In this document: positions 1,464 to 19,472 of the stretch, one piece after another | How the letters are laid out: every line of letters begins with the position of its first letter | Position numbering within the stretch: position 1 is the stretch's first letter | Sequence record: MH791409.1 | Source: Escherichia phage EcWhh-1 | Length of the DNA stretch: 64,000 nucleotides | Direction: 5' to 3' (one strand) | Translations under genes and position numbers: made by a program | The notes under the pieces: generated by a model | Seen by the model: only the letters and a program-made list of their open reading frames with translations | Database searches by the model: none | Told to the model about the DNA's origin: nothing

Positions 1464-2591
1464 TTAATAAACGTAATCGTATATAATACCAGCTTCTAAA
1501 GCGGTGCGATGGATAATTCTTCCATTACGTGATTCTTGTACATCAACCTCTGGATAATCGGCAACCATTTTTTGAAGAGTATAGCGATGGAGATAATAAT
1601 CGCTATCAGGGTCATCAGTTTTCCAGTCTTTACCTTCAAGGGTCATTTTCTGGATTTCATCCATAACCCACCAGCCGGCCCAAATATACGCTGAATTACG
1701 AACAGGAAGTGGGTGTACATAAGGTAGTTCACCTTCCGGTTCAGGAGCGACTTTAGCCGTAATTGTTACATTACCGGATTTTGTGACGGTCACAGGATTA
1801 TAGTTGGTAGCCGAAACAACAACAGAAACTTCAATAACCTGCGAACCTTCAGCACTAGTATCAACCACTAAAGTATCTGTGGCACCTGCGACTGATGAAC
1901 CGTCTTTCTTCCAAGAATAAGCAAAAGTAGCACCAGCAGGCGCACCGGCTACGGTAGCTTTAAAAGAAGCTGGAGTTCCTTCCGGAACATTAATAGAGGC
2001 GGGCGTTAAAGTAACAGAAACACCTGACATAGTTTTCTTAACAAAAGTTACCGCAACACCTTTGGTAGCGGTAGCCGGGTCATATTCAGGGGCGGTAACA
2101 GTAACTTCACAGTTCAAAGTGTAATTTGCTTCCGCCGCTTCGGTTATGGTAATAGTTTTACCGGTTTGACCTGATATTACGCTAGTGTTACGTTTCCAAA
2201 CATAAGCGATTGTTGCACCAGAAGGAGCACCTGTTACGTTAGCAGTAACGACCTGAGATTGGCCAATTTCTTTAGAAACGGAAGTAGGGTCCAAGGCTAA
2301 AGAAATGGTCATGGTCTTATTAGCTACGGTAACTTCAAAAGTATCTTCAGCTACCTCAGGTTCGCCTTCAGCCGGAGTAGAAGTTGCTACTACTTTTAAA
2401 ACTTTCTTACCTGCAGGTGAAGCACCTGTATATTTCAAAACATTGGTTGCTTCTGGATTAGAAGCACCATCAATAGACCATACATATGTAATGGTTCCTT
2501 CTACAGCTGCACCTGTTGCGGTAGCAGTGTAGTTAGCACTTTCGCCTATTTTAATAGACGCTGTGCTGGCTATACTTACAGTAAAAGCCAT
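1464..2591 (-). CDS. hoc: highly immunogenic outer capsid protein Hoc (Ig-like repeats)
   Basis: 375 aa; repeated Ig-like segments and C-terminal EGELPYVHPLP...WWVMDEIQKMT as in T4 Hoc. Confidence 0.9.
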   Translation of the reverse strand: MAFTVSIASTASIKIGESANYTATATGAAVEGTITYVWSIDGASNPEATNVLKYTGASPAGKKVLKVVATSTPAEGEPEVAEDTFEVTVANKTMTISLALDPTSVSKEIGQSQVVTANVTGAPSGATIAYVWKRNTSVISGQTGKTITITEAAEANYTLNCEVTVTAPEYDPATATKGVAVTFVKKTMSGVSVTLTPASINVPEGTPASFKATVAGAPAGATFAYSWKKDGSSVAGATDTLVVDTSAEGSQVIEVSVVVSATNYNPVTVTKSGNVTITAKVAPEPEGELPYVHPLPVRNSAYIWAGWWVMDEIQKMTLEGKDWKTDDPDSDYYLHRYTLQKMVADYPEVDVQESRNGRIIHRTALEAGIIYDYVY

Positions 2592-2600
2592 AGTTTACCC

Positions 2601-3272
2601 TTATTTTAAAGTTACAAAAGATGAATTACGTGTTTCACGTACTAATACTGAGCCATTACGATTGATGTAATAAATCAGACTGAATAATGTTTGGTGGGCA
2701 GAAGGGTGTTGGAAATCTTTAGGACGTTCTTTCCAATCAGGGGTTTCAGAAATCCATTGATAAATCCACCAAGGAACAGTACAGTAACCAGGGTTTTTAC
2801 CAATAAGCAAAAGATTAGGACTAAAGTTTTCAGGCAAAGAGAATACAGGTTTTTCAGATTCAATAACCTCGGCTACAGCCTCTTTTAATTTCTCTTCGAC
2901 AAAAGGAACATCTTCTTCAATAATCTCTACCTTAGGAAGTTCGGCTACCTCAATAACTTCAACTACCGCTTCAGGGGCATCAAATAATAGGGTAGCCTCT
3001 TCTTTGGCAGGTTCAGCACCATCAACAAATTCGTTAGCGCCTGTTAGTTCGTCGGCAGCATCAATCAAATCAGAAATAGACAAACCTTCGGTTTCTGGAA
3101 GTGGTTCATCAGCCAGGGCTTTAAGGCCTTCAGAGATATCGATAATCAAATTATCAAACGAACGGGTTTTCTTAAGTTTTAAACCGAATTGTTCGCCGTA
3201 TTCGATTAACTTAGCTTTAGCTTCTTTTTTATCTTCGAGTGCACGAAGCTCTTCAATATATTGAGTATCCAT
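2601..3272 (-). CDS. inh: inhibitor of prohead protease (Inh)-like acidic protein
   Basis: 223 aa, between hoc and uvsW as in T4 (Inh 226 aa); assigned by synteny and size. Confidence 0.6.
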   Translation of the reverse strand: MDTQYIEELRALEDKKEAKAKLIEYGEQFGLKLKKTRSFDNLIIDISEGLKALADEPLPETEGLSISDLIDAADELTGANEFVDGAEPAKEEATLLFDAPEAVVEVIEVAELPKVEIIEEDVPFVEEKLKEAVAEVIESEKPVFSLPENFSPNLLLIGKNPGYCTVPWWIYQWISETPDWKERPKDFQHPSAHQTLFSLIYYINRNGSVLVRETRNSSFVTLK

Positions 3273-3291
3273 AATTAGTCTCTTGTTGGTG

Positions 3292-3313
3292 TATAAATAT
3301 AATTATATTTATA
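3292..3313. promoter_or_regulatory. back-to-back late promoters: TATAAATA (+, uvsW) and TATTTATA (- sense TATAAATA, inh)
   Basis: exact T4 late promoter consensus on both strands in the inh-uvsW divergent intergenic region. Confidence 0.6.
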
Positions 3314-3327
3314 ACTGAGAATTAGAC

Positions 3328-4824
3328 ATGCAAATTCAAGTACATTTTGATAATTTTAGTCATGTTCGTGTTGAGTGTGATGAATCCACCTTCTACGAAC
3401 TCAGAGACTATTTCAGCTTTGAAGCTGATGGATATAAATTTAACCCTAAATACCGTTACGGGCAATGGGATGGGAGAATTCGTCTTCTAGATTATAACCG
3501 TAAACTCCCGTATGGTCTAGTCCCACAAATTAAAAAATTCGCTGACCAGTTTGAATACTCTCTTTGGATAGACCCACGAATTCTTGAACAAGAAGATATT
3601 TCACGTGAAGATTTTGACTCATGGGTGGCTTCACAAGAGATTTATTCAGGTTCTACCAAGATTGAGCCACATTGGTATCAGAATGAAGCCGTATACAACG
3701 GTCTGACAAAACGTCGTGCAATTCTGAATTTACCTACATCTGCAGGTAAATCATTGATTCAGGCACTCCTGAGTCGATATTACGTTGAGAACTATGAAGG
3801 TAAAATTCTTATCTTAGTTCCTACTACTGCACTTGTCGACCAGATGATTAATGACTTCATTGATTATCGTTTGTTCCCTAAAGCTGCTATGCTTGGTATT
3901 CGTTCAGGTACTGCTCGTGATTCCGATGCAATGATTTATGTTTCAACTTATCAAACGGCTATTAAACAGCCTAAAGAATGGTTTGCTCAGTTTGGTATGT
4001 TTATGAACGACGAATGCCATTTGGCGACAGGTAAATCAATTTCTACCATCATCGAAGGCCTAACCAATTGTATGTTTAAATTCGGTTTGTCTGGTTCTTT
4101 AAAAGATGGTAAAGCCAATTTAATGCAATATATGGGTTTGTTTGGTGATGTGTTTAAGCCGGTATCCACTTCACAGTTAATGGAAGAAGGACAGGTTACA
4201 GACCTTAAAATCAACAGTATTTTCCTTCGTTATCCGGATGAATTCACTGTTAAGATGAAAGGTAAAGATTACCAATCAGAAATAAAGGTCATTACTAAGG
4301 CTACTCGTCGTAATAAATGGGTTGCTAATTTAGCTGTTAAACTCGCTAAGAAAGAAGAGAACGTATTCCTGATGTTTAAAAACATCGAACACGGTAAAAC
4401 TCTTTTTGAAATGGTTAAAGAGCAACATAAAGAAGTTTATTACGTATCAGGTGAAGTTAATACCGAAACGCGTAATGCTCTGAAAGTAATGGCGGAAAAT
4501 GGTAAAGGTATTATTGTTGTGGCAAGTTATGGTGTGTTCTCTACTGGTATTTCCGTTAAGAACCTTCATCATGTTGTATTTGCTCATCCAGTAAAATCCA
4601 AAATCATTGTACTCCAGACAATTGGTCGTGTACTCCGTAAACATGCTTCTAAATCAACAGCACAAGTTTGGGACATTATAGACGACATGGGCGTTAAGCC
4701 TAAATCAGCAAATGCTAAAAAGAAATATGTTCATTTGAATTATGCATTAAAACATGCCTTAGAACGTATTCAACGTTATGCTGACGAGAAATTTAATTAC
4801 GTAATGAAACAGGTGGATTTATGA
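3328..4824 (+). CDS. uvsW: UvsW DNA/RNA helicase (SF2)
   Basis: 498 aa; matches T4 UvsW throughout as recalled (Walker A NLPTSAGKS, DECH box). Confidence 0.92.
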   Translation: MQIQVHFDNFSHVRVECDESTFYELRDYFSFEADGYKFNPKYRYGQWDGRIRLLDYNRKLPYGLVPQIKKFADQFEYSLWIDPRILEQEDISREDFDSWVASQEIYSGSTKIEPHWYQNEAVYNGLTKRRAILNLPTSAGKSLIQALLSRYYVENYEGKILILVPTTALVDQMINDFIDYRLFPKAAMLGIRSGTARDSDAMIYVSTYQTAIKQPKEWFAQFGMFMNDECHLATGKSISTIIEGLTNCMFKFGLSGSLKDGKANLMQYMGLFGDVFKPVSTSQLMEEGQVTDLKINSIFLRYPDEFTVKMKGKDYQSEIKVITKATRRNKWVANLAVKLAKKEENVFLMFKNIEHGKTLFEMVKEQHKEVYYVSGEVNTETRNALKVMAENGKGIIVVASYGVFSTGISVKNLHHVVFAHPVKSKIIVLQTIGRVLRKHASKSTAQVWDIIDDMGVKPKSANAKKKYVHLNYALKHALERIQRYADEKFNYVMKQVDL

Positions 4825-5048
4825 AGTCCTTTAAAGAAGTTATCTATGAAGCCTCTATCGAGAGCTTCATGTCTAAAATTAGTTCTTGTCAAACCATGGA
4901 CGGTTTGAAGGAATTGGAAAAGTATTACAAAACTCGTAGTAAGGAAGCCGAACTTCGTGATTCGGATGATATCAGCGTACGCGATGCATTGGCTGGTAAG
5001 AGAGCCGAATTGGAGTCGATGGACGACGAGGAAGAGGAAGATTTCTAA
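4821..5048 (+). CDS. uvsW.1: UvsW.1-like acidic protein
   Basis: 75 aa, overlaps uvsW stop (ATGA), acidic C-terminus; same position as T4 uvsW.1. Confidence 0.7.
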   Translation: MKSFKEVIYEASIESFMSKISSCQTMDGLKELEKYYKTRSKEAELRDSDDISVRDALAGKRAELESMDDEEEEDF

Positions 5049-5055
5049 ACAAAAA

Positions 5056-5078
5056 GGGCCCAACCTTTCGGAAGGGCC
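5056..5078 (+). terminator. hairpin GGCCC...GGGCC after uvsW.1
   Basis: inverted repeat directly after the uvsW.1 stop. Confidence 0.4.
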
Positions 5079-5108
5079 AATAACCATAAAATGGCTATAC
5101 ACACTAGA

Positions 5109-5276
5109 CTAAAGTAATAATTGTGTTTCGTTCAGCTGTTCTTCAGTGTTTTCCGTAACAGGCATGCTTTGAACGTAATTATAACATGAACCCGGATGAA
5201 CCGGACCTTTTTCTGTTTCAACAACCAATGCAGCATCGATTGGAGTTTTACAGACAACGCAAATCTTATCTGACAT
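5109..5276 (-). CDS. small Cys-rich protein (uvsY.-2 position)
   Basis: 55-aa ORF not in the supplied track (<60 aa); MSDKICVVCKTP...GSCYNY suggests a zinc ribbon; coordinates approximate. Confidence 0.45.
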   Translation of the reverse strand: MSDKICVVCKTPIDAALVVETEKGPVHPGSCYNYVQSMPVTENTEEQLNETQLLL

Positions 5277-5402
5277 GATTGTCTCCTTAGTTTATCTTAC
5301 ATATCTATTTATTACTTGCTAAAGCGGCATTAATGAATTCTTGGAGAAGTTTCATCTTATCAGCATCTGCTTTAATGGGTTTGGTATTTTTAGTACGTCT
5401 CA

Positions 5403-5837
5403 TTATTTGCCAGCCTCAAATTGTCTCATCTCATGCATGGTCTTAAGGTTAAAACCTCGCGCCTTAATAGCATCCAGTGCTGAACTACAAAAGTCCTGTA
5501 ATAAGGCCCAATACTGGATTGATGTATCTATTTTAATCACGCTAGAATCTGCGGCCATTACAGTCTTTAATTCTGACTTCTCGTATTGGTCCATACAAAC
5601 CTCATCACCAGGCTCTCCGCGTCCCGTGTAGAAATCTAATCGCTTCTTAAGAGAGGTCTTTTTCTGGATTTCTAATCGCATTATCTCTTTCTTACAATTC
5701 GTATACAGCCTTAGCCATTTGCTGTGCAGCAAAACGTTGTTCTGTACTTCATACTGTAAACGAGTCCCATCAATTTTTAAATCTTCATCCAATGCATCTT
5801 GGAATGATTCCAATTTATATTCAATCTCTTTACTCAT
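5403..5837 (-). CDS. uvsY: UvsY recombination mediator
   Basis: matches T4 UvsY (LQYEVQNNVLLHSKWL...MHEMRQFEAGK); track ORF extends upstream from a GTG, ATG at MSKEI preferred. Confidence 0.85.
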   Translation of the reverse strand: MSKEIEYKLESFQDALDEDLKIDGTRLQYEVQNNVLLHSKWLRLYTNCKKEIMRLEIQKKTSLKKRLDFYTGRGEPGDEVCMDQYEKSELKTVMAADSSVIKIDTSIQYWALLQDFCSSALDAIKARGFNLKTMHEMRQFEAGK

Positions 5838-5895
5838 CGCATGTTTCCTGTGTAATAACCATAGGACCATTATACACCATTCATTTGAACAGCAA
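5838..5895 (-). promoter_or_regulatory. candidate uvsY promoter region (possible ori(uvsY) equivalent)
   Basis: - strand reads TTGCTGTTCA then TATAAT about 15 nt downstream, just upstream of uvsY; T4 has a middle promoter/origin at this position. Confidence 0.3.
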
Positions 5896-6285
5896 TTAAC
5901 CACTCTGTGAGAGTTGGATTCTAATTTGCTCTAATGTATCCGGGTCATCAACAATACTAAACTGAACGGATACTATAATAGAGTTGTCATCATAAACAGG
6001 GGTAACGCCTACGGCAAGAGCAGAAATTCTGGGTTCGAAGTTCCGCACAGCAGAAACTATATTACGCTTAATGGTATCCGTGATTAATGGGGTAATATTC
6101 TCAAATAGTTGATTACTGATATCACAACCAAATTCAGGCATAAAAGGGCGAGAACCCTTACGAGTAGTAATAATGCCTAACAAACTGTTTTTTACTGCAC
6201 GGGCCCCTGTAGCTTTAGCGACGTCTCTATTCCAAGACGTCCTCATTTCAGGGTCCAAATCTGAATACATTTTATCGATATTCAT
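5896..6285 (-). CDS. 25: baseplate wedge protein gp25
   Basis: 129 aa; matches T4 gp25 (NSLLGIITTRKGSRPF...PEFGCD). Confidence 0.9.
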   Translation of the reverse strand: MNIDKMYSDLDPEMRTSWNRDVAKATGARAVKNSLLGIITTRKGSRPFMPEFGCDISNQLFENITPLITDTIKRNIVSAVRNFEPRISALAVGVTPVYDDNSIIVSVQFSIVDDPDTLEQIRIQLSQSG

Positions 6286-6908
6286 TACATCACCTTAAAG
6301 AACTCTTTAAGTCCCTCAATAACGTGGACGGTATGCTCACCACATTCACAAGAAATAGGTATGGCCAAAATAGGCTTAGGGGCAACTAGAGCATCATAAA
6401 CTTCTTTTACATCTTTTTCTGTTATAACAGAATAAAGGTCGTCTAGTTCCGCATCACTTAAATCAGAAAGAAGAAGCTTTTCGCCTGCAGAAGTTAAAAT
6501 ATAATCGATACATCCTGCAACCATCATAGCCCTATTTTTGTCTTCAAAGAGCTTAGGATATCTGAACACTATTTTAAAGTTGCCGAAGTCCTTAATAATA
6601 TCAGGCTCTTTACCTAATGAAGCGCGAGTTAACGTCATAGGGACAACCTGTGAGCGACCACAACTGCAAACCCACTCACGTTCTATATTCACTTCAGCCA
6701 GTGAATGGGCCCACAGGTTTATCACCAGGAGCTCAGATTCTTGCTTGTTTAAACCACGAGCATCTGTGCAATTCAAAATGAGTTCATTGATAAAGGGCTC
6801 TATTCTGTCTTCTAATTTAGCTTGGAGCAAGTCCTTATACTCTCTGAGGGTAAATGCTCTGCATTTTATGGTCTTGTTTTTAATTTTTACGTCAAAAGTA
6901 TAATTCAT
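6285..6908 (-). CDS. 26: baseplate hub subunit gp26
   Basis: 207 aa (T4 gp26 208 aa); synteny 25-26-51-27. Confidence 0.75.
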   Translation of the reverse strand: MNYTFDVKIKNKTIKCRAFTLREYKDLLQAKLEDRIEPFINELILNCTDARGLNKQESELLVINLWAHSLAEVNIEREWVCSCGRSQVVPMTLTRASLGKEPDIIKDFGNFKIVFRYPKLFEDKNRAMMVAGCIDYILTSAGEKLLLSDLSDAELDDLYSVITEKDVKEVYDALVAPKPILAIPISCECGEHTVHVIEGLKEFFKVM

Positions 6909-6926
6909 TGTCTTCTCCTTTAAGCT

Positions 6927-6938
6927 TATTTATAAATA
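6927..6938. promoter_or_regulatory. palindromic back-to-back late promoters TATTTATAAATA (26/25 on -, 51 on +)
   Basis: contains TATAAATA on both strands between divergent genes 26 and 51. Confidence 0.6.
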
Positions 6939-6958
6939 CATCAATAAGAGGATACCCT

Positions 6959-7711
6959 ATGGCTAATATAGTGCGTTGCGAAATGCCTGATGGAGTCCAC
7001 CGATTTAAACCTTTTACAGTAGCTGATTATCGTGATTTTATTTTGATTCGAAATGATATGAATAATAAATCACCCGAAGAGCAAAAACAAATTTTAGATG
7101 AGTTACTGGAAGAATACTTTGGTGAGTACCCTGTGTCATGGCGCCCATACATGTTTATTGAATTGTATACGTCATCTCTCGGCAAGACCAAAATTCCTAT
7201 CCGATACACTTGCAGTAAGTGTGAAAAGGATAGACAAGTTTTATTCAATTTGAAGCAGACCAAGTTAGATAACCCTACAATTGAAGTGGCTGGCTTGAAA
7301 CTGACATTCAAATTCCCAGAAATAGAATATCACGATAAATCTGAATTGATTTTGAACACCCTCCAAACCGTAGAAGATGAAAACGGAAAATATAATTGGT
7401 CAGACCTTTCTGAAGAGGACCAATTAGCCGTAATAGATGCTATAGACTTATCCACTTTAGAGGATATAGTTAAACAAACTAGCCCTATTCATTTCGAGCT
7501 CAAATATGGGTGCTGTAATCGTAGAACAATTACATACACTGACATTTTAGAAGTGTTTAAACTTATAGTCAATCCGGATGAGATATTTTTATTTTACCAA
7601 ATAAACCATTTACTGGTAAAGAACAATTATTCATTAGAAAGCATTATGCAGATGATTCCAATCGAACGCGGTATTGCTTTGTCTTTGGTTGAAAAGGACC
7701 TTAAGAAATGA
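6959..7711 (+). CDS. 51: baseplate hub assembly catalyst gp51
   Basis: track ORF starts at 6908 inside the promoter; ATG at about 6959 ([10 protein letters not shown]) gives 250 aa vs T4 gp51 249 aa. Confidence 0.7.
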
Positions 7712-8877
7712 GTTCAAAAACTATGCAGCGTGAAGGCTTTCCTAATATCAGCATACGCCTTTACGAAGATTATGACGCCTGGTTAGAGCATCGTTTTGTT
7801 GAACTAGGCGCGACATTTACTACCCTAACAATGCGAGATGGCCTTTACGGTAGTAATGAAGGATTGCTCCAGTTTTATGATGCAAAAAACCTTCATACTA
7901 AAATGGACGGTGAACAGATTATCCAAGTTTCTGTTAAGAATGCCAACTCCGAGCGTACCCAATCAAGAATTTACGGAAGTAAACACTTTGCAGTAGGGGT
8001 GGATTCTAAGGGCGACAATATCATAACAATACAACTCGCCCCAATCCACTTTTTAGAAAATCTTAAATTCGGCCGTATGTTCTTCCCTAGTGTTCAAGAA
8101 ACATTAACCGAAATGATTGGTGTTATTTACCAGGACCGACCACTCCTTGCACCTCCATTGAACGGGATAAACGTTTATGTTCCTAACGTTCCATGGTGTG
8201 ATTCTATGGACAGATATATGGAATTTGTACGAGAAGTTGGTATGGCCGTTGAATCCGATAAATTTGTATTTGTCTGGGAAGATATAGATGGTATTTCTAT
8301 CATGGACTACGAATTTATGGTTAATCAAGAGCCTATCAATTTTGTGGTTGGTGAGCCTCGTTTAATAGGCCAATACGTCCAAGATATGGATACTCCTATT
8401 GCATTTGATTTTGAGTGGTTAACTAAAGCTAACCAACATACCCGAAAACCGTACGAAAATGCTACAGTATACGCCCATTCGTTCCTAGATAAAAACGCCA
8501 CACGAATTACTTTTGGTGACGGGCAAAACAGTATATTGGTTTCTCGTTCAGGTGGATATTCTGATTATACCTACCGAAACGGGTTTGAAGAAGCTGATAG
8601 ATTGGTTACTATGGCCCAGTATGATGGGTACGCTCATTGCAAGGTATATGGGAACTTTGAATTAACTCCGGGTGATAAGATTAACTTCTATGACCCTAAA
8701 AACCAATTCCAATACGATTTTTATGTAGACGAAGTTATTCATGAAGTGAGTAACAATACATCAATTACAAACCTTTATATGTTTACTAATGGTAAGCCTA
8801 TTAAGATTGAAGAGCCACCGAAGGTTAAAAATGAACTTAAAACTGATACTCCCGATCAAGAAAATAACGCTGGGTGA
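7708..8877 (+). CDS. 27: baseplate hub protein gp27
   Basis: 389 aa (T4 391 aa); N-terminal similarity to T4 gp27; synteny. Confidence 0.85.
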
Positions 8878-9352
8878 TAAAGAGATTTCCATTCCTAAAT
8901 TGGGTCTTAAACACCAAAAATTGGTTAAAGATGAAAAAGACCCTTATAAAGCTCTTCATATATTAATGAGTTCCATTTATAAGGGTTTAACTGCAGCCGA
9001 AACAGATTTCGCTGCTCTTCATCTTTTAGAATTCAACGGACGGTTGAAAGAAAAGGTAACTAAGGATGGGTTTACGTATAACCTAAATGACCTTTATATC
9101 TGCCAACGTCTTGAATTCCAATTCCAAGGTAAAACATTTAAATTTAAATCACATGAACCGTTCCAAACATTTGGTCCTGTTGATAGTGTATTACAATCCC
9201 TTTACCTTGGTGATGATGTACCAGATTTTCTGGATATGCCTGCCTTTGTTGCTACATGGGCCGACGATATAACTTCTACTGTAGCTATCCCTGGTCCTAA
9301 TGGTCCTATTAAAGGATTGCTTAAAATCATGGATATCTTAAATGAAGAATGA
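8831..9352 (+). CDS. 28: baseplate hub distal subunit gp28
   Basis: internal ATG (MNLKLILP) gives about 173 aa vs T4 177 aa; synteny. Confidence 0.65.
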
Positions 9353-13128: not shown

Positions 13129-13136
13129 CAAAAAAA

Positions 13137-13154
13137 GGAGAGCTTACGCTCTCC
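13137..13154. terminator. hairpin GGAGAGC-TTAC-GCTCTCC between convergent gp54 and the alt-proximal ORF
   Basis: 7-bp stem preceded by an A7 run, at a convergent gene boundary. Confidence 0.55.
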
Positions 13155-13163
13155 TTTAGGGGT

Positions 13164-13454
13164 TTATTTACGGAACGAGATAAAACCTGCTGCGGTCATT
13201 AGTGGTTGCTTTTTAACAAAGACTGTGATAGAAATAGGAGCTTCAGATTCAAGCTGACCGGTTACTACGCCATTAAAGATATTTTCGGTTTGCTCAGGTT
13301 GTGAAAAATTTTCAACCGGACGTAAGTCGAACTGTTTGTCTTCGCCGAAAACTCGACGTAATTCATTACCGACTGCACTGTCGAACTCTTCAGAAGCAGG
13401 GATAACGTTTTCAACTACCAGTTCCTGACCATTAAAACGGAATGCAGATTTCAT
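13164..13454 (-). CDS. hypothetical protein (alt.-x position)
   Basis: 96-aa ORF with its own early promoter/stem-loop upstream. Confidence 0.5.
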   Translation of the reverse strand: MKSAFRFNGQELVVENVIPASEEFDSAVGNELRRVFGEDKQFDLRPVENFSQPEQTENIFNGVVTGQLESEAPISITVFVKKQPLMTAAGFISFRK

Positions 13455-13475: not shown

Positions 13476-13512
13476 TAAGGTAATAGTACCACATCCTTGT
13501 GGTGTTGTAAAC
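13476..13512 (-). promoter_or_regulatory. early promoter with stem-loop (PeSL-like)
   Basis: - strand GTTTAC (-35) then TGGTACTATTAC (extended -10). Confidence 0.5.
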
Positions 13513-15638
13513 TACATTTTGAATTTATTTGATAAAGAAGAGATGTCCAAAGATGCAGCAAGGATTTCCATAGCCTCATTACTTTCTGAAACAGATTCTG
13601 AAACTAGGAATTCTTTAAACCCATTCATCAATTTAACTTCGCCAGTTTCCATCAGATGGTCGCCATCGTAAACGGATTCACTGAGTTCTGAAGGAGACGT
13701 CACTGTAGCTTCCATAAGGTATTTGTGAGATACCCTATCATTCATAGCAAAAGCCGCTACTTTATCAACCTTCATCAATAATCCACGCGGAAGGATAATT
13801 TCTGCTTCTTCAGCATATTCTGTAAGGTCGCCAGGAGCGATAACTTTAACTGCTTCAGCACCTCGAATAACCATACCGATTTCAGCAATCCTGTCTGCAG
13901 GGCCTTCAGGTGCAATTGGATTACCAAACTCGTCTTCTTCCCATTCTACCTCTTCGTCATCGACTTCACCCACATCAGATGAACTACCACTAGCCAATTT
14001 AAACAACTCATCAGCGGAGGATAAAGAACCTTCACCACCAACAAAAACGGCTTGGTTGTCGAGGGCCATATAATTTTTACCGAATTCACCAAAGATGTTA
14101 GGCTTTAATGAGGCTGACACAAAGTTCTTAAAGTAAAATGTTTTGTTATCGATATTATGACGCAGAATTTTGTATGGCAAATCCTGACCACGATACAAAA
14201 TAGTACCCTTAGGGAGTTTAATACCCTTGGTAAATGCTGAGTCTAAATCCTTAATCAATTTAATAGCCGTTGTATTGTTTTCGGATTCAGGTTTACCTAA
14301 AAGGAATAAGTTCATAGGAGCATATTCAGCTGCGCAATATTCAATAATAGCATTGCTTTCGTCTTTGGTTAGGTCCTTAGGTTTAATGAGCTCACCTGAA
14401 TAAGCATATGCATCACTAATAGAATCGTTAATTAGTTTATAAACGGCTTCCATAGCGAAAGCAATTCGAGAGGCCTTTTCTGAAGGGGACCCCTGAAAAC
14501 GAGCGCTCAAGTTATTAACAATTTTCTTAATAATATCCAGGCTATTGGTAGTATTGATTTGCGAAAGGCCACTTAAAAGTCTATCGACTTCTGTATTAAA
14601 AAATGCCATATTATTAGAGTAAATTTCAAACCCTTGTTTATCTCTATTAGCATAATTTAGTTTAAATTTACTATCAGTCATTAAAGCGTGGGTGAGAGCA
14701 ATAGTGTATCTAAAGTTGGCAAGGTCCTCACTCTTAGATTTAAACTGAGAGGCCTGACGCATTTTAGTAATAGCACCTTTTTTAAAGTTCTGGCTAATCT
14801 GTTCAATACCTTCGTTCTCAGGACCTTCAGCCGAATGAACAGGTACAGAAGCTTCAAACTCATTATAAACCTGCAATTCTTTAGGGGATAAAGTTTCGGG
14901 TTCGGCAGTAGAATACTGCGCTGCTGCAGCCATACGACGGGAAATCTTAGTACGAGAAATAACCGCCTTATCGGTACGTTTCTCTTCAACCTGTGCAATA
15001 GATGCCGCTACGGCTTCGACCTTACTTACGGCCTGGCCTGTTTTCTTAGAAACATAAACTTCGCCAACTTTAGACTCAACCTTGGTATAAAGATCAGCAT
15101 CAATTTCAGGCATACCCTTGATATCTTCGATATTAGAACCACGACGTACTAAAAGAACGTATGTATGTTTACCACTAAACTGGAACATATCATCGACAAC
15201 TTTAAACTTACCACCGGTACGTGCCATCACCAAACGAGCTAATACACGCTGAACGGTAGGACCCTTACCTTTCATTTTCTTGGTAGGGAAACGGAACAAA
15301 ACTGCATCCGTTTTAAGTTTGTTTACTTGTTCGTATACAGTATCGAAAATAGTATTCAGTGTACCAAGTGGGTCAGAACCAAGCCCGCCTTTGAGTTCAG
15401 CCGGAGCACCCTTGCTAGACAAACTCATCAAAATAACATGAACGTATTTGTCGCCGGGCTTAACCATTTTAATAGCGTCTCCTTGAGACGCATAAGATAC
15501 CATACGAGCAACCAGATTATCATTACCTGGTGCTTGGATAGAGAAAATCTGTGGAATACCGGAACCTGGTTTAAGATTTGTTACTGGATAGTTTTTAGCG
15601 GAATCACTATCAAAAACCTCGTTTAAATTTTCCATCAT
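13512..15638 (-). CDS. alt: Alt-like ADP-ribosyltransferase, copy 1
   Basis: 708 aa; R-S-E ART motifs (YRGQ, SAS, EIILPRG); N-terminal half conserved with copy 2 and with T4 Alt. Confidence 0.85.
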   Translation of the reverse strand: MMENLNEVFDSDSAKNYPVTNLKPGSGIPQIFSIQAPGNDNLVARMVSYASQGDAIKMVKPGDKYVHVILMSLSSKGAPAELKGGLGSDPLGTLNTIFDTVYEQVNKLKTDAVLFRFPTKKMKGKGPTVQRVLARLVMARTGGKFKVVDDMFQFSGKHTYVLLVRRGSNIEDIKGMPEIDADLYTKVESKVGEVYVSKKTGQAVSKVEAVAASIAQVEEKRTDKAVISRTKISRRMAAAAQYSTAEPETLSPKELQVYNEFEASVPVHSAEGPENEGIEQISQNFKKGAITKMRQASQFKSKSEDLANFRYTIALTHALMTDSKFKLNYANRDKQGFEIYSNNMAFFNTEVDRLLSGLSQINTTNSLDIIKKIVNNLSARFQGSPSEKASRIAFAMEAVYKLINDSISDAYAYSGELIKPKDLTKDESNAIIEYCAAEYAPMNLFLLGKPESENNTTAIKLIKDLDSAFTKGIKLPKGTILYRGQDLPYKILRHNIDNKTFYFKNFVSASLKPNIFGEFGKNYMALDNQAVFVGGEGSLSSADELFKLASGSSSDVGEVDDEEVEWEEDEFGNPIAPEGPADRIAEIGMVIRGAEAVKVIAPGDLTEYAEEAEIILPRGLLMKVDKVAAFAMNDRVSHKYLMEATVTSPSELSESVYDGDHLMETGEVKLMNGFKEFLVSESVSESNEAMEILAASLDISSLSNKFKM

Positions 15639-17726
15639 TTACCCTTGGATGAATTTTTCTGGGATGCCATAGAGGTCTATGCATGAAGCCAAAAGAGGCA
15701 GTACATCAAACCGTGTAGATTTAACAAATGAATCAAAAGATACAGGGCTTTCGGAAGTATCGAAATCATCTTGATACACAACCAACTCGCCGGTTTCCAT
15801 TAGTACGTCACCATCATACACTACAGATTCTTGAAGCTCATCTGATGTCATAACTTCAGCTTGAATAAATTTATTGTTAGACACCGCCCCAGAACCAGTA
15901 TTGGCTGATGCATCCACGATTTTATCTATTTTTACAAGTAGCCCGCGTGGTAAAATTATTTCCTTTTCGTTGGCATGCATGCTTAATTGGCCAGGATAAA
16001 TCACGTTAACTTTATGAGCGCCACTAATAGCCCAGCCAACATCAACACGGATTTGATCCGGCGCATACATATGTGTACGCACTTGACTGGCAGAGATGGT
16101 AACGCCTTCGTCATTATTATCAATGTTTAATTCTTTTCGAACATCATCGGAAGCAAGACCAATAGCCGCATTCTCTTTAAAGCCACCAAAAATGATTGGA
16201 GCCAATGAGGTTGAAACATAGTTTCTAAAATAGAATACCTTATTTTTAACTAATGCCTCGTAGATAGGCGCGCGCAAAGATTGGGCCCTATAAACCGTTA
16301 TTCCTTCAGGTAAACGGTCGCCATTTTTAAAGGCCGAATCCATTCCATCAATAGCACGTTTAACTTCGCTTTCGTCCAAAACTTCATAAAAGCCTGGTTT
16401 ATAACGGCCAAGAAGGACATTGTTAATATCAATATAAGCTGAAGAGGCGTATTCTCTGATAGCTCGTTTTTCTGCAAGTGTATATTGTTTAGGGTCTCGA
16501 GATGTTGTTATATTAAGAATTTCTCTAGTTGATTCTATAGCGTATGTATACATTATCTTAGACAAGAATGAAGACTTACGTTGTTTCCATACTCTTTCAC
16601 TGTTTTCATTCAATATCTCTTTTTCCAAATGGAAGTTGTCTTTTCTATAATCTTCGAACCAATCACTTTTAATAGATTCTGCGATTTCATTAGCAGCTTC
16701 AACAAAGGCAGCTAAAGCTTTAACTGACGTGGTTTTTTCATTTTTAATTTTTTTGACAAATGATTCTAAAGAAGAGTTAATTTTATCACCGTAAGAAACT
16801 TCATCCGCAAATTTAAATGAATCATCCATAGTATTATAAATTTTAAAATCAATAGCCGTAGCCAGCTTATCCTTAGCTGTTTCGGATGATAATGATAATT
16901 CAACTTCGGCTGCTTGTGGAATTAATTCCGCCGTAGCGGGCGCACTGAACTCGCTAGCAGTTTGCTCGTATTTCTGAAATAATTCACCTTCATTACGGTC
17001 TGCTTCTAATGACTGGCTTGCCGCAATCGCCCGACGGGAAATCTTAGTCTTGGTTACAACCATTTTATCAGTGCGACGTTCTTCAACTTTAGCAATACTG
17101 CCGGCAATAGCGGTTTCTTTAGTAACCTGAGCGCCTTCTTTTTTAGAAATATAAACTTCACCGACATCAGAATCTACCTTAGTGTATAATTCGGAATTAA
17201 TTCCTGGCATACCTTTGATATCTTCGATATCAGCTTGTTTACGAACTACTAGGATATAAGTATGTTTACCGGTAAATTGGTACATAGCAGGAACTACTTT
17301 AAAACGTCCACCGGTTTTCTGTGCTACCAAACGTTGGATAATCCGTTGGACGATAGGTCCTTGCCCTTTCATTTTCTTGGTTGGAAAACGGAACATCACA
17401 GCATCCATACGAAGCTTTTTAACTTGTTCGAATACTACATCGAAAATGGTATTGATAGCATCAATAGGAGTAGGGCCTAAGCCGCCTTTAAGTTCGGCTG
17501 GAGAACCTTTAGCCGAAAGGCTCATAAGGATAACGTGGGCGTATTTATCACCTAATTTAACCTGTTTAATAGCATCGCCTTCAGAGGCATAAGATACCAT
17601 ACGAGCAACTAATTGGGATTCGGCATCGCCAATCTTCCAAATCTGGGGTACTTTAAGTTTTGGGTTTAAGTTTACAGTAGGCAGGGTGCCTTCGGACTCA
17701 AACACTTCATTTAATTGTTCGGTCAT
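15639..17726 (-). CDS. alt: Alt-like ADP-ribosyltransferase, copy 2
   Basis: 695 aa; motifs YRAQ, STS, EIILPRG; tandem paralog of 13512-15638. Confidence 0.85.
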   Translation of the reverse strand: MTEQLNEVFESEGTLPTVNLNPKLKVPQIWKIGDAESQLVARMVSYASEGDAIKQVKLGDKYAHVILMSLSAKGSPAELKGGLGPTPIDAINTIFDVVFEQVKKLRMDAVMFRFPTKKMKGQGPIVQRIIQRLVAQKTGGRFKVVPAMYQFTGKHTYILVVRKQADIEDIKGMPGINSELYTKVDSDVGEVYISKKEGAQVTKETAIAGSIAKVEERRTDKMVVTKTKISRRAIAASQSLEADRNEGELFQKYEQTASEFSAPATAELIPQAAEVELSLSSETAKDKLATAIDFKIYNTMDDSFKFADEVSYGDKINSSLESFVKKIKNEKTTSVKALAAFVEAANEIAESIKSDWFEDYRKDNFHLEKEILNENSERVWKQRKSSFLSKIMYTYAIESTREILNITTSRDPKQYTLAEKRAIREYASSAYIDINNVLLGRYKPGFYEVLDESEVKRAIDGMDSAFKNGDRLPEGITVYRAQSLRAPIYEALVKNKVFYFRNYVSTSLAPIIFGGFKENAAIGLASDDVRKELNIDNNDEGVTISASQVRTHMYAPDQIRVDVGWAISGAHKVNVIYPGQLSMHANEKEIILPRGLLVKIDKIVDASANTGSGAVSNNKFIQAEVMTSDELQESVVYDGDVLMETGELVVYQDDFDTSESPVSFDSFVKSTRFDVLPLLASCIDLYGIPEKFIQG

Positions 17727-17762
17727 AATAATTCCTCTTTAATAACCGTATTTATGCCATAA

Positions 17763-17778
17763 AAGGCCCGAAGGCCTT
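17763..17778 (-). terminator. hairpin AAGGCC-CGAA-GGCCTT (UUCG loop on transcript)
   Basis: inverted repeat between the ligase operon and alt copy 2. Confidence 0.5.
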
Positions 17779-17947
17779 AAAGTGGTAGCAACGTGCGGTA
17801 TACTTCGAATGTCGGGCCTTTTTCATAGCCATCAAATGTATCTTTAAAATCGGCAAAAGCTATTTCGTCCTCAAACTCAAGGATGATTTGAGAGACTGCC
17901 GTGGTATTTGTATTTGATACAACAACTGTTTCTAAATAAACTTTCAT
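17777..17947 (-). CDS. hypothetical small protein
   Basis: track ORF trimmed to the ATG overlapping the ligase stop (TAATATG). Confidence 0.4.
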   Translation of the reverse strand: MKVYLETVVVSNTNTTAVSQIILEFEDEIAFADFKDTFDGYEKGPTFEVYRTLLPL

Positions 17948-17948
17948 A

Positions 17949-19472
17949 TTATAACCCAGTTTGAGACCAATCACCGAATACATCTTCAAATGTATCAGCT
18001 TCTGTTTTATCGAAACGCCAACCTTTAATGATTGGAAGGAAAATACCTACAGTATCAGTACGTCCTTTAGAATGAACCCAACCATTACATTCACAGTCAG
18101 CAATACGTCCAATCAACTTACCTTCACGAGCTTGTTTCATAAGAAGTTCACGGTCTAAATCAGGACGGTCTTCCAATGGAATCAATACCTTTTTACCTGA
18201 TTTATCTTTCTTATGGGTGGTATCTTTAAAGCCTGAGCCACAGTCACTTGTAATTCGACGACACCGTGATACCAATTCAACACCACCAAGTTTGTTAGGG
18301 TCCTTCGAGTGTTCATAATAACCTACCACTTCTAAAGCGATATCGATTACTTCTTTGAACTTGATAAGATTCTTAGAACGGCGGTTTTCCCAGTAGGAGT
18401 CCATGTTCTTAAGGATAATACCTTCCAGGCCTTGGTCAACGTATTTTTTATAAACGACTTTAGCTTCTTCGAGATTATTAACCCACTGGTTTTCGATAGC
18501 TTCAACACGCGTTGTACCATGCAATACGACATTATGAGCCACCATAAGTTCTAAGGCTGTAAAGCGTACATCGTACTTATCGCCTTTAATTTTGCCTTCA
18601 GAATACACGACATCCAACGGGACATAATCCCATGCCTGTAATACCATACCGGCAGCTTCGGATGGAGTGATAGTTCCTTGAAGAGCCTTATTAGCCAATC
18701 CATTTGACGTAGAACGGTCGGCGACAGTTTGGAATTCCTTGGCTTTACTTAATTCCGGAAGTTCTTCATCAAACATACTAAACAAATCATTAGATGCTTT
18801 CGGTTCAACTTTAGGTGTGTGGTAAACTAATTCACCGTCAATCATGACACCGTTAGGATGGCGTTGTCGAGCTTCTTCGGTCATCGCCATTAATTCAGCA
18901 GCCAAAAGATTAAGCCCTTGATATTCATTACCACCACGAGTAAGGAATGTCACACCGTCATTACGAACTTCAGCAAAACAACGAGCACCGTCAGCTTTTA
19001 ATTGAGCAAACGCAGGCCATTTAATATTTTTCTTAATCAAATCTTCATCATAAGAACTAGCCAACATCTGGGGTTGTTCAGGGATTAAACCTTTCCAAAC
19101 CTTGTTAGCAATAGAAATCGATGCACCGCATTCAAGGTCGCGCATCATTACACGACGTAATACCTCGGCGTCCGGGGCCTTAGCATCGGCAATGATTTGT
19201 GCCAGTTCTTCAATAGCAGCATTACCTGTAATCTTACGGGTGGCTAATGTGAACTCAGCGAAATCAAGAAGGTCTTCAAGTGTAATCATACCAAAGGATT
19301 GAGACGTAAATCCAGGTTCTGGCCACTTTTTAATACCATAGTTCAGACGACGGGTATAAGCCATACGATAAACACGTTTCAGAAGCTCGTTATCCTTTTC
19401 ACGAGCAATAATAGCTTCTTTAGCTTTAGTAGAATCGATAGCCGCAATTTCGTTCAAAATATCTAAAATCAT
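17949..19472 (-). CDS. 30: ATP-dependent DNA ligase gp30
   Basis: 507 aa; matches T4 DNA ligase (KADGAR motif I; GASISIANKVW...IPEQPQMLASSYDE). Confidence 0.92.
   Translation of the reverse strand: MILDILNEIAAIDSTKAKEAIIAREKDNELLKRVYRMAYTRRLNYGIKKWPEPGFTSQSFGMITLEDLLDFAEFTLATRKITGNAAIEELAQIIADAKAPDAEVLRRVMMRDLECGASISIANKVWKGLIPEQPQMLASSYDEDLIKKNIKWPAFAQLKADGARCFAEVRNDGVTFLTRGGNEYQGLNLLAAELMAMTEEARQRHPNGVMIDGELVYHTPKVEPKASNDLFSMFDEELPELSKAKEFQTVADRSTSNGLANKALQGTITPSEAAGMVLQAWDYVPLDVVYSEGKIKGDKYDVRFTALELMVAHNVVLHGTTRVEAIENQWVNNLEEAKVVYKKYVDQGLEGIILKNMDSYWENRRSKNLIKFKEVIDIALEVVGYYEHSKDPNKLGGVELVSRCRRITSDCGSGFKDTTHKKDKSGKKVLIPLEDRPDLDRELLMKQAREGKLIGRIADCECNGWVHSKGRTDTVGIFLPIIKGWRFDKTEADTFEDVFGDWSQTGL

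Follow-up and report, generated by a model that had tools for sequence, protein, structure and literature searches.

Nearly all knowledge of the Alt ADP-ribosyltransferases comes from bacteriophage T4, which has lost its second copy of the gene. Mass spectrometry of T4 has placed the cuts made in Alt by the prohead protease gp21 after ITE-6 and after LTE-619, the latter cut taking off 63 residues from the C-terminus (PMC5694885), and the Alt variant E577A is devoid of ADP-ribosylation activity (PMC11404850). Nolan et al. (2006) described alt.-1/alt.-2 of T4, RB49ORF183c and 44RRORF188c as partial alt duplications and 44RRORF187c as a full-length one (PMC1524935), and a paper from 2026 reported two paralogous Alt-like proteins (43% identical) in one Tequatrovirus phage, for which an expanded target range was suggested (PMC13600099). 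Here, we analysed a stretch of 64,000 nucleotides from Escherichia phage EcWhh-1 (MH791409.1; hereafter the window), in which two adjacent alt genes, altA and altB, are located. Comparison with their relatives suggests that altA and altB are probably two old, functionally distinct paralogues of T4 alt kept in two conserved slots, whose products would be injected with different target sets.

The pair itself is not new, being already annotated in JS98-like phages and common among the relatives of T4. The window belongs to Dhakavirus, and its 5-kb alt region is slightly closer in nucleotide sequence to phage UP19 (97.8% identity) than to phage JS98 (95.9%). In the GenBank record of JS98 (EF469154), alta and altb are flanked by alt.1/gene 30 on one side and by alt.-3/gene 54 on the other, and the records of JS10 and IME08 bear the same alta/altb annotation. 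At the protein level, AltA of the window shares 99.1% identity with JS98 AltA (ABX11129), and AltB shares 98.3% with JS98 AltB (ABX11128) and 99.3% with its UP19 counterpart. Since T2, pSs-1 and distant Straboviridae have tandem pairs as well, and since alt duplications have been published (PMC1524935, PMC13600099), the novelty implied by a first-pass annotation of this DNA does not stand, and the original observation adds nothing to the annotation of JS98-like phages.

AltA and AltB as Alt paralogues

The two genes are head-to-tail open reading frames (ORFs) on the minus strand, exactly as in the ORF list of the window, and all features described below lie on this strand. altA (15639..17726) encodes an Alt-like ADP-ribosyltransferase of 695 amino acids (aa) and occupies the upstream 'A slot', adjoining alt.1 and gene 30; altB (13512..15638) encodes one of 708 aa and occupies the downstream 'B slot', adjoining alt.-3. 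A comparison of the ORF map with the T4 and JS98 annotations showed that the locus order matches that of T4, with the genes placed between gene 30/alt.1 and alt.-3/gene 54 on the strand opposite the baseplate genes. In pairwise BLASTP, AltA and AltB are 41% identical over their full length (E 7e-150). Both matched the whole of PHROG 802 (Alt-like RNA polymerase ADP-ribosyltransferase; 1-674 of 674 positions), with E values of 1e-250 and 2e-257, and both exceeded the gathering cut-off (23.4 bits) of the Pfam family PF03496 (ADPrib_exo_Tox), with 101 bits for AltA and 64.8 bits for AltB. The first-pass claim of two adjacent full-length Alt paralogs of 708 and 695 aa is thus borne out. Against full-length T4 Alt, BLASTP identity is 43% for AltA and 33% for AltB. 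AltA shares 73% identity with the one Alt of Mosigvirus; outside Dhakavirus, AltB comes closest to the products of the second alt copies in T2 and pSs-1 (48%). In NCBIfam, no match was found for AltA, AltB, Alt.-3 or Alt.1.

The likeness between the two proteins is very unevenly distributed. Identity is 65% over residues 1-237, 13% over residues 238-410 (the middle domain), 39% over the catalytic domain (411-620) and 38% over the last 75 residues, in agreement with the earlier description of a conserved N-terminal part followed by a divergent remainder. The middle domain is the truly different part, with the catalytic domain and the C-terminal tail diverging only moderately. The N-terminal alpha/beta domain of AltA with its linker helices (17016..17705; residues 8-237) is basic (isoelectric point, pI, 9.8) and lineage-specific, sharing 65% identity with the N-domain of AltB and only 47% with that of T2 Alt-1; in its AlphaFold2 (AF2) model, the mean predicted local distance difference test score (pLDDT) is 83.5. 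The N-terminal domain of AltB (14919..15617; residues 8-240) has the same pI of 9.8. In the AF2 model of AltB (overall pLDDT 76.7, predicted template modelling score 0.71), an alpha/beta N-domain (15-200) and linker helices extending to residue 241 are followed by a middle domain made only of helices (252-418), a catalytic domain (425-646) and a C-terminal tail of low confidence. The AltB middle domain (14385..14918; residues 241-418), with AF2 helices across 252-418, shares 47% identity with the middle domain of T2 Alt-2 and 13% with that of AltA.

Searches of the PDB sequences with the full protein (phmmer) and with an N-domain profile gave no match and no solved Alt structure, and a Pfam search of the Alt N-domain gave only noise at E values up to 10. 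Besides PF03496, a second family, PF26846, is precomputed on nearly all of the listed homologues P0001-P0120 (P0015 being the exception). Our own Pfam scans, run on the full-length window proteins at E values up to 1 and on the N-domains at up to 10, did not report PF26846, which is probably a newer model for a non-catalytic part of Alt.

The active-site residues are intact in both proteins. In AltA, Arg480 (16287..16289) lies in YRAQ (479-482), Ser505-Thr-Ser507 (16206..16214) forms the STS motif and Glu587-Lys-Glu589 (15960..15968) forms the ExE loop, within EKEIILPRG (587-595), which aligns with the ExE of T4 Alt. The catalytic domain of AltB (13677..14384; residues 419-654), recognised by both PF03496 and Foldseek, has Arg483 in YRGQ (482-485), Ser508-Ala-Ser510 (SAS) and Glu611-Ala-Glu613 in EAEIILPRG (611-619). 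The columns of the catalytic Arg, both Ser residues and the Glu-x-Glu are unchanged in 21 of 21 aligned Alt sequences, T4 Alt included, and both proteins have the catalytic Arg, Ser-x-Ser and (Gln or Glu)-x-Glu of the R-S-E clade. The retention of the Arg-Ser-Glu (R-S-E) motifs YRGQ/YRAQ, SAS/STS and EIILPRG in both copies, noted at first pass, is therefore upheld by these invariant columns, and neither copy has lost the catalytic Arg or Glu. The second Glu of each ExE motif in the window is the counterpart of T4 Alt E577; this numbering fits when T4 Alt is counted from the first of two adjacent ATG codons. In Foldseek, the AF2 catalytic domain of AltB resembles Vis, Certhrax, C3bot, CDTa and VIP2 (E 3e-7 to 1e-4; target TM-score ~0.6). 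AltA and AltB are predicted to be arginine-specific mono-ADP-ribosyltransferases.

A feature specific to AltB is an acidic insertion of 64 residues (13893..14084; residues 519-582) between the Ser-x-Ser strand and the ExE loop. It contains 17 Asp/Glu against 2 Lys/Arg and includes the run DVGEVDDEEVEWEEDEF, and it is predicted to be disordered, with pLDDT below 50 over 519-540, 551-568 and 572-579. In the alignment, the insertion is present in Dhakavirus AltB, shorter in T2 Alt-2 and absent from A-type copies.

Both proteins also carry L-x-E motifs aligned with the two T4 cleavage sites, namely LNE-7 in AltA and AltB, LQE-633 in AltA and LSE-654 in AltB. The putative N-terminal propeptide of AltA, MTEQLNE (17706..17726), ends in such a prohead-protease motif and aligns with T4 MELITE. 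The predicted C-terminal propeptide of AltA, together with the stop codon (15639..15827), comprises residues 634-695 after LQE-633, which aligns with T4 LTE-619, and that of AltB (13512..13676, stop codon included) comprises residues 655-708 after LSE-654. The L and E columns of the C-terminal site are invariant in the Alt alignment, and the predicted mature masses are ~70 and 71 kDa. Proteomics has detected the Mosigvirus homologue, 73% identical to AltA, in virions (PMC6563131); a literature search for similar data on Dhakavirus Alt proteins gave nothing relevant. On the strength of the T4-like motifs, AltA and AltB are likewise expected to be packaged and processed. The N-domain of ~230 residues may also have a role in packaging, the established T4 signals being the short terminal propeptides (PMC5694885).

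Mosaic history and copy number of the alt locus

Bootstrapped neighbour-joining trees were built separately for the N-domain, the effector block and the C-terminal tail. The N-domain tree follows phage lineage, uniting all five Tequatrovirus copies (99% bootstrap), the Thanatos pair (100%) and the Aeromonas 31 pair (100%), and grouping Dhakavirus with Mosigvirus (74%). The tree of the middle-plus-catalytic block is divided into A-type and B-type clades with 100% support each, both of which span Dhakavirus and Tequatrovirus, and a grouping of all Tequatrovirus copies received 0%. Because the A and B clades each span both genera, the A/B split predates the separation of Dhakavirus and Tequatrovirus. 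The tree of the C-terminal tail follows the slot, the AltB tail grouping with the second copies of T2 and pSs-1 (87% bootstrap). The N-domains appear to have been homogenised or replaced within phage lineages. A recent conversion event between the two genes of this phage was considered and rejected: the DNA identity of their N-domains is only 50-74%, that of third codon positions 32-63%, and no long identical tracts were seen between the two N-domains.

The separate fate of the block is seen most directly in DNA comparisons. The exchangeable block of altA (15855..16990) covers approximately codons 245-622, that is, the helical middle and the catalytic domain. Between the window and JS10, nucleotide identity is 39-79% within this block (~16990-15855) and 91-100% everywhere else, with sharp breakpoints near codons 235-250 and 622-625, and the AltA tail is 96% identical to that of JS10 AltA although the adjoining upstream block has been swapped. 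The JS10 block in turn resembles T2 alt-1, with nucleotide identities of 86-94% in the catalytic part, 40-64% in the flanking N-domain and 50-63% in the tail; at the protein level, JS10 AltA and T2 Alt-1 are 94% identical in the catalytic domain and 47% in the N-domain. Between T4 alt and T2 alt-1, the N-domain and the tail are 95-100% identical and the block 38-72%. In an extra copy of KIT01 (locus coordinates 4639-6684), a Dhakavirus B-like N-domain (90% aa identity) is joined to a block of the VR7 type, the middle domain of which matches at 83% and the catalytic domain at 76%. In a set of 70 homologues from the database, 42 pairs have N-domains at least 90% identical yet catalytic domains at most 65% identical.

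With the right-hand breakpoint placed shortly before the C-terminal protease site, it is the mature effector that moves, and the N-domain and the C-terminal propeptide remain with the phage. altA of the window carries the JS98-type block, and its divergence from Mosigvirus is roughly even along the whole gene, so the block of this copy looks vertically inherited. In the incomplete literature collection searched, we found no paper on alt block exchange or mosaic alt genes, and the exchange of internal effector blocks in alt is apparently undescribed.

Against other Dhakavirus phages, the ratio of nonsynonymous to synonymous substitution rates (dN/dS) is 0.05-0.08 for altA, 0.03-0.065 for altB and 0.035 for the AltB effector block. 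These low values show that altA and altB are both maintained as protein-coding genes under purifying selection. Positive selection was rejected as the cause of the divergence between close relatives, dN/dS being 0.03-0.14.

The number of alt copies at the locus ranges from 1 to 4 in the relatives. Tandem full-length pairs are found in T2 (698 aa as annotated, or 697 from the annotated coordinates, and 685 aa), pSs-1, Shewanella phage Thanatos-2 and Aeromonas phage 31. KIT01 and UGJNEcP phages have three copies, and phage 04086 has three intact copies, including a very divergent one of 631 aa, plus an altB split into two ORFs (locus coordinates 2439-8990); KIT01 and 04086 are examples of Dhakavirus phages with a third copy. 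Mosigvirus and VR7 have a single copy. In a tblastn search of 50,697 phage records, Alt matched at 1835 places in 1221 records, which indicates that extra copies or remnants are frequent.

T4 was described in the first-pass annotation as carrying a single alt gene. This holds for intact genes; T4 keeps, in addition, a truncated second copy as alt.-1/alt.-2, which its GenBank record gives as an old duplication of the first part of alt. In blastn, the T4 and T2 loci are collinear up to a point ~350 bp into the second T2 copy, after which the alignment jumps ~1.7 kb to the end of that copy and continues at 95.7% identity into alt.-3. T4 alt.-1/alt.-2 (NC_000866, locus coordinates 5066-5451) corresponds to approximately the first 115 codons of a second alt copy, and of the second T2 copy (locus coordinates 5601-7658), the stretch ~5948-7639 is missing from T4. 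T4 thus lost its B-type copy through an internal 1.7-kb deletion. Two copies are the older state in Tequatrovirus, and the single intact copy of T4 is the derived one.

Expression and possible roles of the pair

Upstream of altA lies a hairpin GGCCTTCGGGCC followed by TTTT and then, 22 nt from the ATG, by the late-promoter-like CATAAATA (together 17749..17776); the Shine-Dalgarno sequence GAGG is at 17734-17737. T4 alt has the identical hairpin GGCCTTCGGGCC and then the consensus late promoter TATAAATA at the same position. The hairpin is unchanged between T4 and the window despite the 43% protein identity of the genes. The stop codon TAA of altA abuts the ATG of altB (15636..15641) with zero intergenic space, a junction that suggests co-transcription and possibly coupled translation. 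A separate altB promoter was rejected, as the two genes leave no gap between them, TATAAATA does not occur nearby and sigma-70-like matches do not exceed their frequency in shuffled sequence.

Directly 3' of altB is a homologue of alt.-3 (13164-13454; 96 aa), which probably shares its transcript. A terminator-like hairpin of 10 bp with a T run (13134..13157) ends the alt operon after alt.-3, and a single late transcript may span altA, altB and alt.-3. In T4, Alt.-3 with C-terminal extension mutations blocks CmdA degradation and thereby evades the CmdTAC defence system (PMC11618068). On the other side of the pair, alt.1 (17777-17989) is a program-called ORF with a TTG start at 17989 that runs into the end of gene 30. 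In the JS98 annotation, alt.1 is shorter and starts at an ATG equivalent to window position 17947.

Based on these data, we propose that altA and altB would be transcribed together late in infection from the late-promoter-like site upstream of altA, and that both proteins would be incorporated into the prohead core, trimmed by the prohead protease at LNE-7 and at LQE-633 (AltA) or LSE-654 (AltB), held in the mature head and injected with the DNA, where they would serve as mono-ADP-ribosyltransferases of the R-S-ExE (C3/VIP2-like) type with specificity for arginine. A lineage-matched carrier frame may be formed by the basic N-terminal domain together with the C-terminal propeptide, and the effector part, which would set the target range, by the helical middle and catalytic domains. 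Since the A and B effectors differ (13% and 39% identity in the two domains) and each is older than the Dhakavirus/Tequatrovirus split, the phage would inject two enzymes with different target sets. Two functional injected ADP-ribosyltransferases of different specificity seem to us the most reasonable reading of these sequences, because the paralogues are full-length, have an intact R-S-ExE, share an N-terminal module, diverge in their effector parts and are under purifying selection.

Several points weigh against this reading. Different targets are deduced from the divergence of the middle and catalytic domains only, and the catalytic domain of AltB is, in its model, interrupted by the acidic, predicted-disordered insertion of 64 residues. 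The promoter-like site upstream of altA reads CATAAATA, the consensus being TATAAATA, and a literature search gave no expression, virion or activity data for either product of this phage or of any Dhakavirus. Furthermore, T4 alt is non-essential and T4 lost the B copy without obvious harm, so that the B function is dispensable at least on laboratory hosts.

Among the alternatives, the one that survives best is that one copy, most likely AltB, mainly serves counter-defence, its substrates being defence proteins or toxins of the host and not the transcription machinery, with block exchange as the trace of an arms race with host immunity. For T4 Alt, the MazF toxin has been reported as a substrate. 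This account draws on the crossing of blocks between genera while the carrier parts stay, as in JS10 AltA and T2 Alt-1, on the 42 mosaic pairs among database homologues and on the variable copy number at the locus. We nevertheless regard it as rather unlikely: no defence target is known for any B-type Alt, the point-substitution rates show purifying and not diversifying selection, and the account overlaps with our preferred explanation instead of excluding it. Simple redundancy, in which RNA polymerase alpha is the substrate of both copies and duplication does no more than increase the dose of injected enzyme, would agree with the identical catalytic motifs, with the same carrier ends in both copies and with the ability of T4 and Mosigvirus to manage with one; yet the low identity of the middle (13%) and catalytic (39%) domains, and the separation of A and B types since before the Dhakavirus/Tequatrovirus split with each under purifying selection, would be unexpected for interchangeable copies and make it very improbable. 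That AltB is a catalytically dead structural core protein, kept as a pseudo-enzyme only for head assembly, might be thought from its large acidic disordered insertion within the catalytic domain and from the description of Alt as a head core component, but is hardly credible with Arg483, Ser508/Ser510 and Glu611/Glu613 intact, YRGQ, FVSASL and EIILPRG conserved, an effector-block dN/dS of 0.035 and a T4 head assembly that does not require Alt.

Returning to two injected enzymes of different specificity, we tentatively extend this reading to the locus as a whole. alt may be an effector locus of two to four slots, in which a lineage-specific carrier is re-armed by blocks moving across genera, co-resident N-domains are homogenised and B-type enzymes have targets unlike those of T4 Alt, possibly in host defence. 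The sequence pattern behind this re-arming is solid; the extended reading as a whole is somewhat less likely to be right than to be wrong. The idea of an expanded target range is reasonable and has already been published as a suggestion (PMC13600099).

The locus matters in two ways. The B-type enzyme, carried by T2, Dhakavirus and many phages proposed for therapy, is without a studied representative, and should the two types indeed modify different host proteins, the number of alt copies and the kind of block they carry would offer a simple marker, readable from the genome, of the capacity for host takeover or counter-defence. In addition, the block boundaries near AltA residues 245 and 622 are natural junctions, usable for target-choice chimeras and for engineering head-delivered cargo.

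Comparison with known systems

The closest counterparts are AltA and AltB of JS98, which are the same genes at the same coordinates relative to their neighbours and differ from those of the window by point changes only. T4 Alt (NP_049811), which is packaged in the head, injected with the DNA and ADP-ribosylates RNA polymerase alpha and other host proteins, has the same architecture, gene order, active-site residues and pair of protease motifs, and its gene is likewise preceded by the hairpin and a late promoter. It differs in that T4 has one intact copy and the alt.-1/alt.-2 remnant, and in its effector block, a third A-subtype that pSs-1 also has. T2 and pSs-1 resemble the window in having two full-length copies in the same slots, an A-type upstream and a B-type downstream; however, their N-domains are only 42-47% identical to those of the window and group with each other instead, and the B-type copy of T2 is without most of the acidic insertion found in AltB.

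Beyond the phages, the R-S-E toxins C3, VIP2, Vis and Certhrax (PF03496) share the catalytic fold and the Arg, Ser-x-Ser and (Gln or Glu)-x-Glu residues, although their sequence identity to Alt is only 11-20%. Unlike these toxins, Alt has an extra N-terminal alpha/beta domain, a helical middle domain and two propeptides, and is delivered from the phage head and not by secretion.

In its modular history, the alt locus is reminiscent of polymorphic toxins (Rhs, CDI and MuF-fused phage effectors), in which a conserved delivery part is joined to an effector part replaced by recombination (for the concept, see PMC3482391). Different from these toxins, the exchanged block of alt is internal, with conserved carrier on both sides, and belongs to one enzyme class only. 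In the loci compared, no immunity gene was found beside alt, the only neighbours being alt.1 and alt.-3, which are conserved regardless of block type. Nor were orphan effector cassettes seen, the alt.-1/alt.-2 remnants of T4 being N-terminal. As immunity genes and orphan cassettes are both lacking, the polymorphic toxin locus serves here as an analogy and not as a classification. By every feature of sequence and fold that could be compared, AltA and AltB belong to the T4 Alt family and to the R-S-E clade of ADP-ribosyltransferases.

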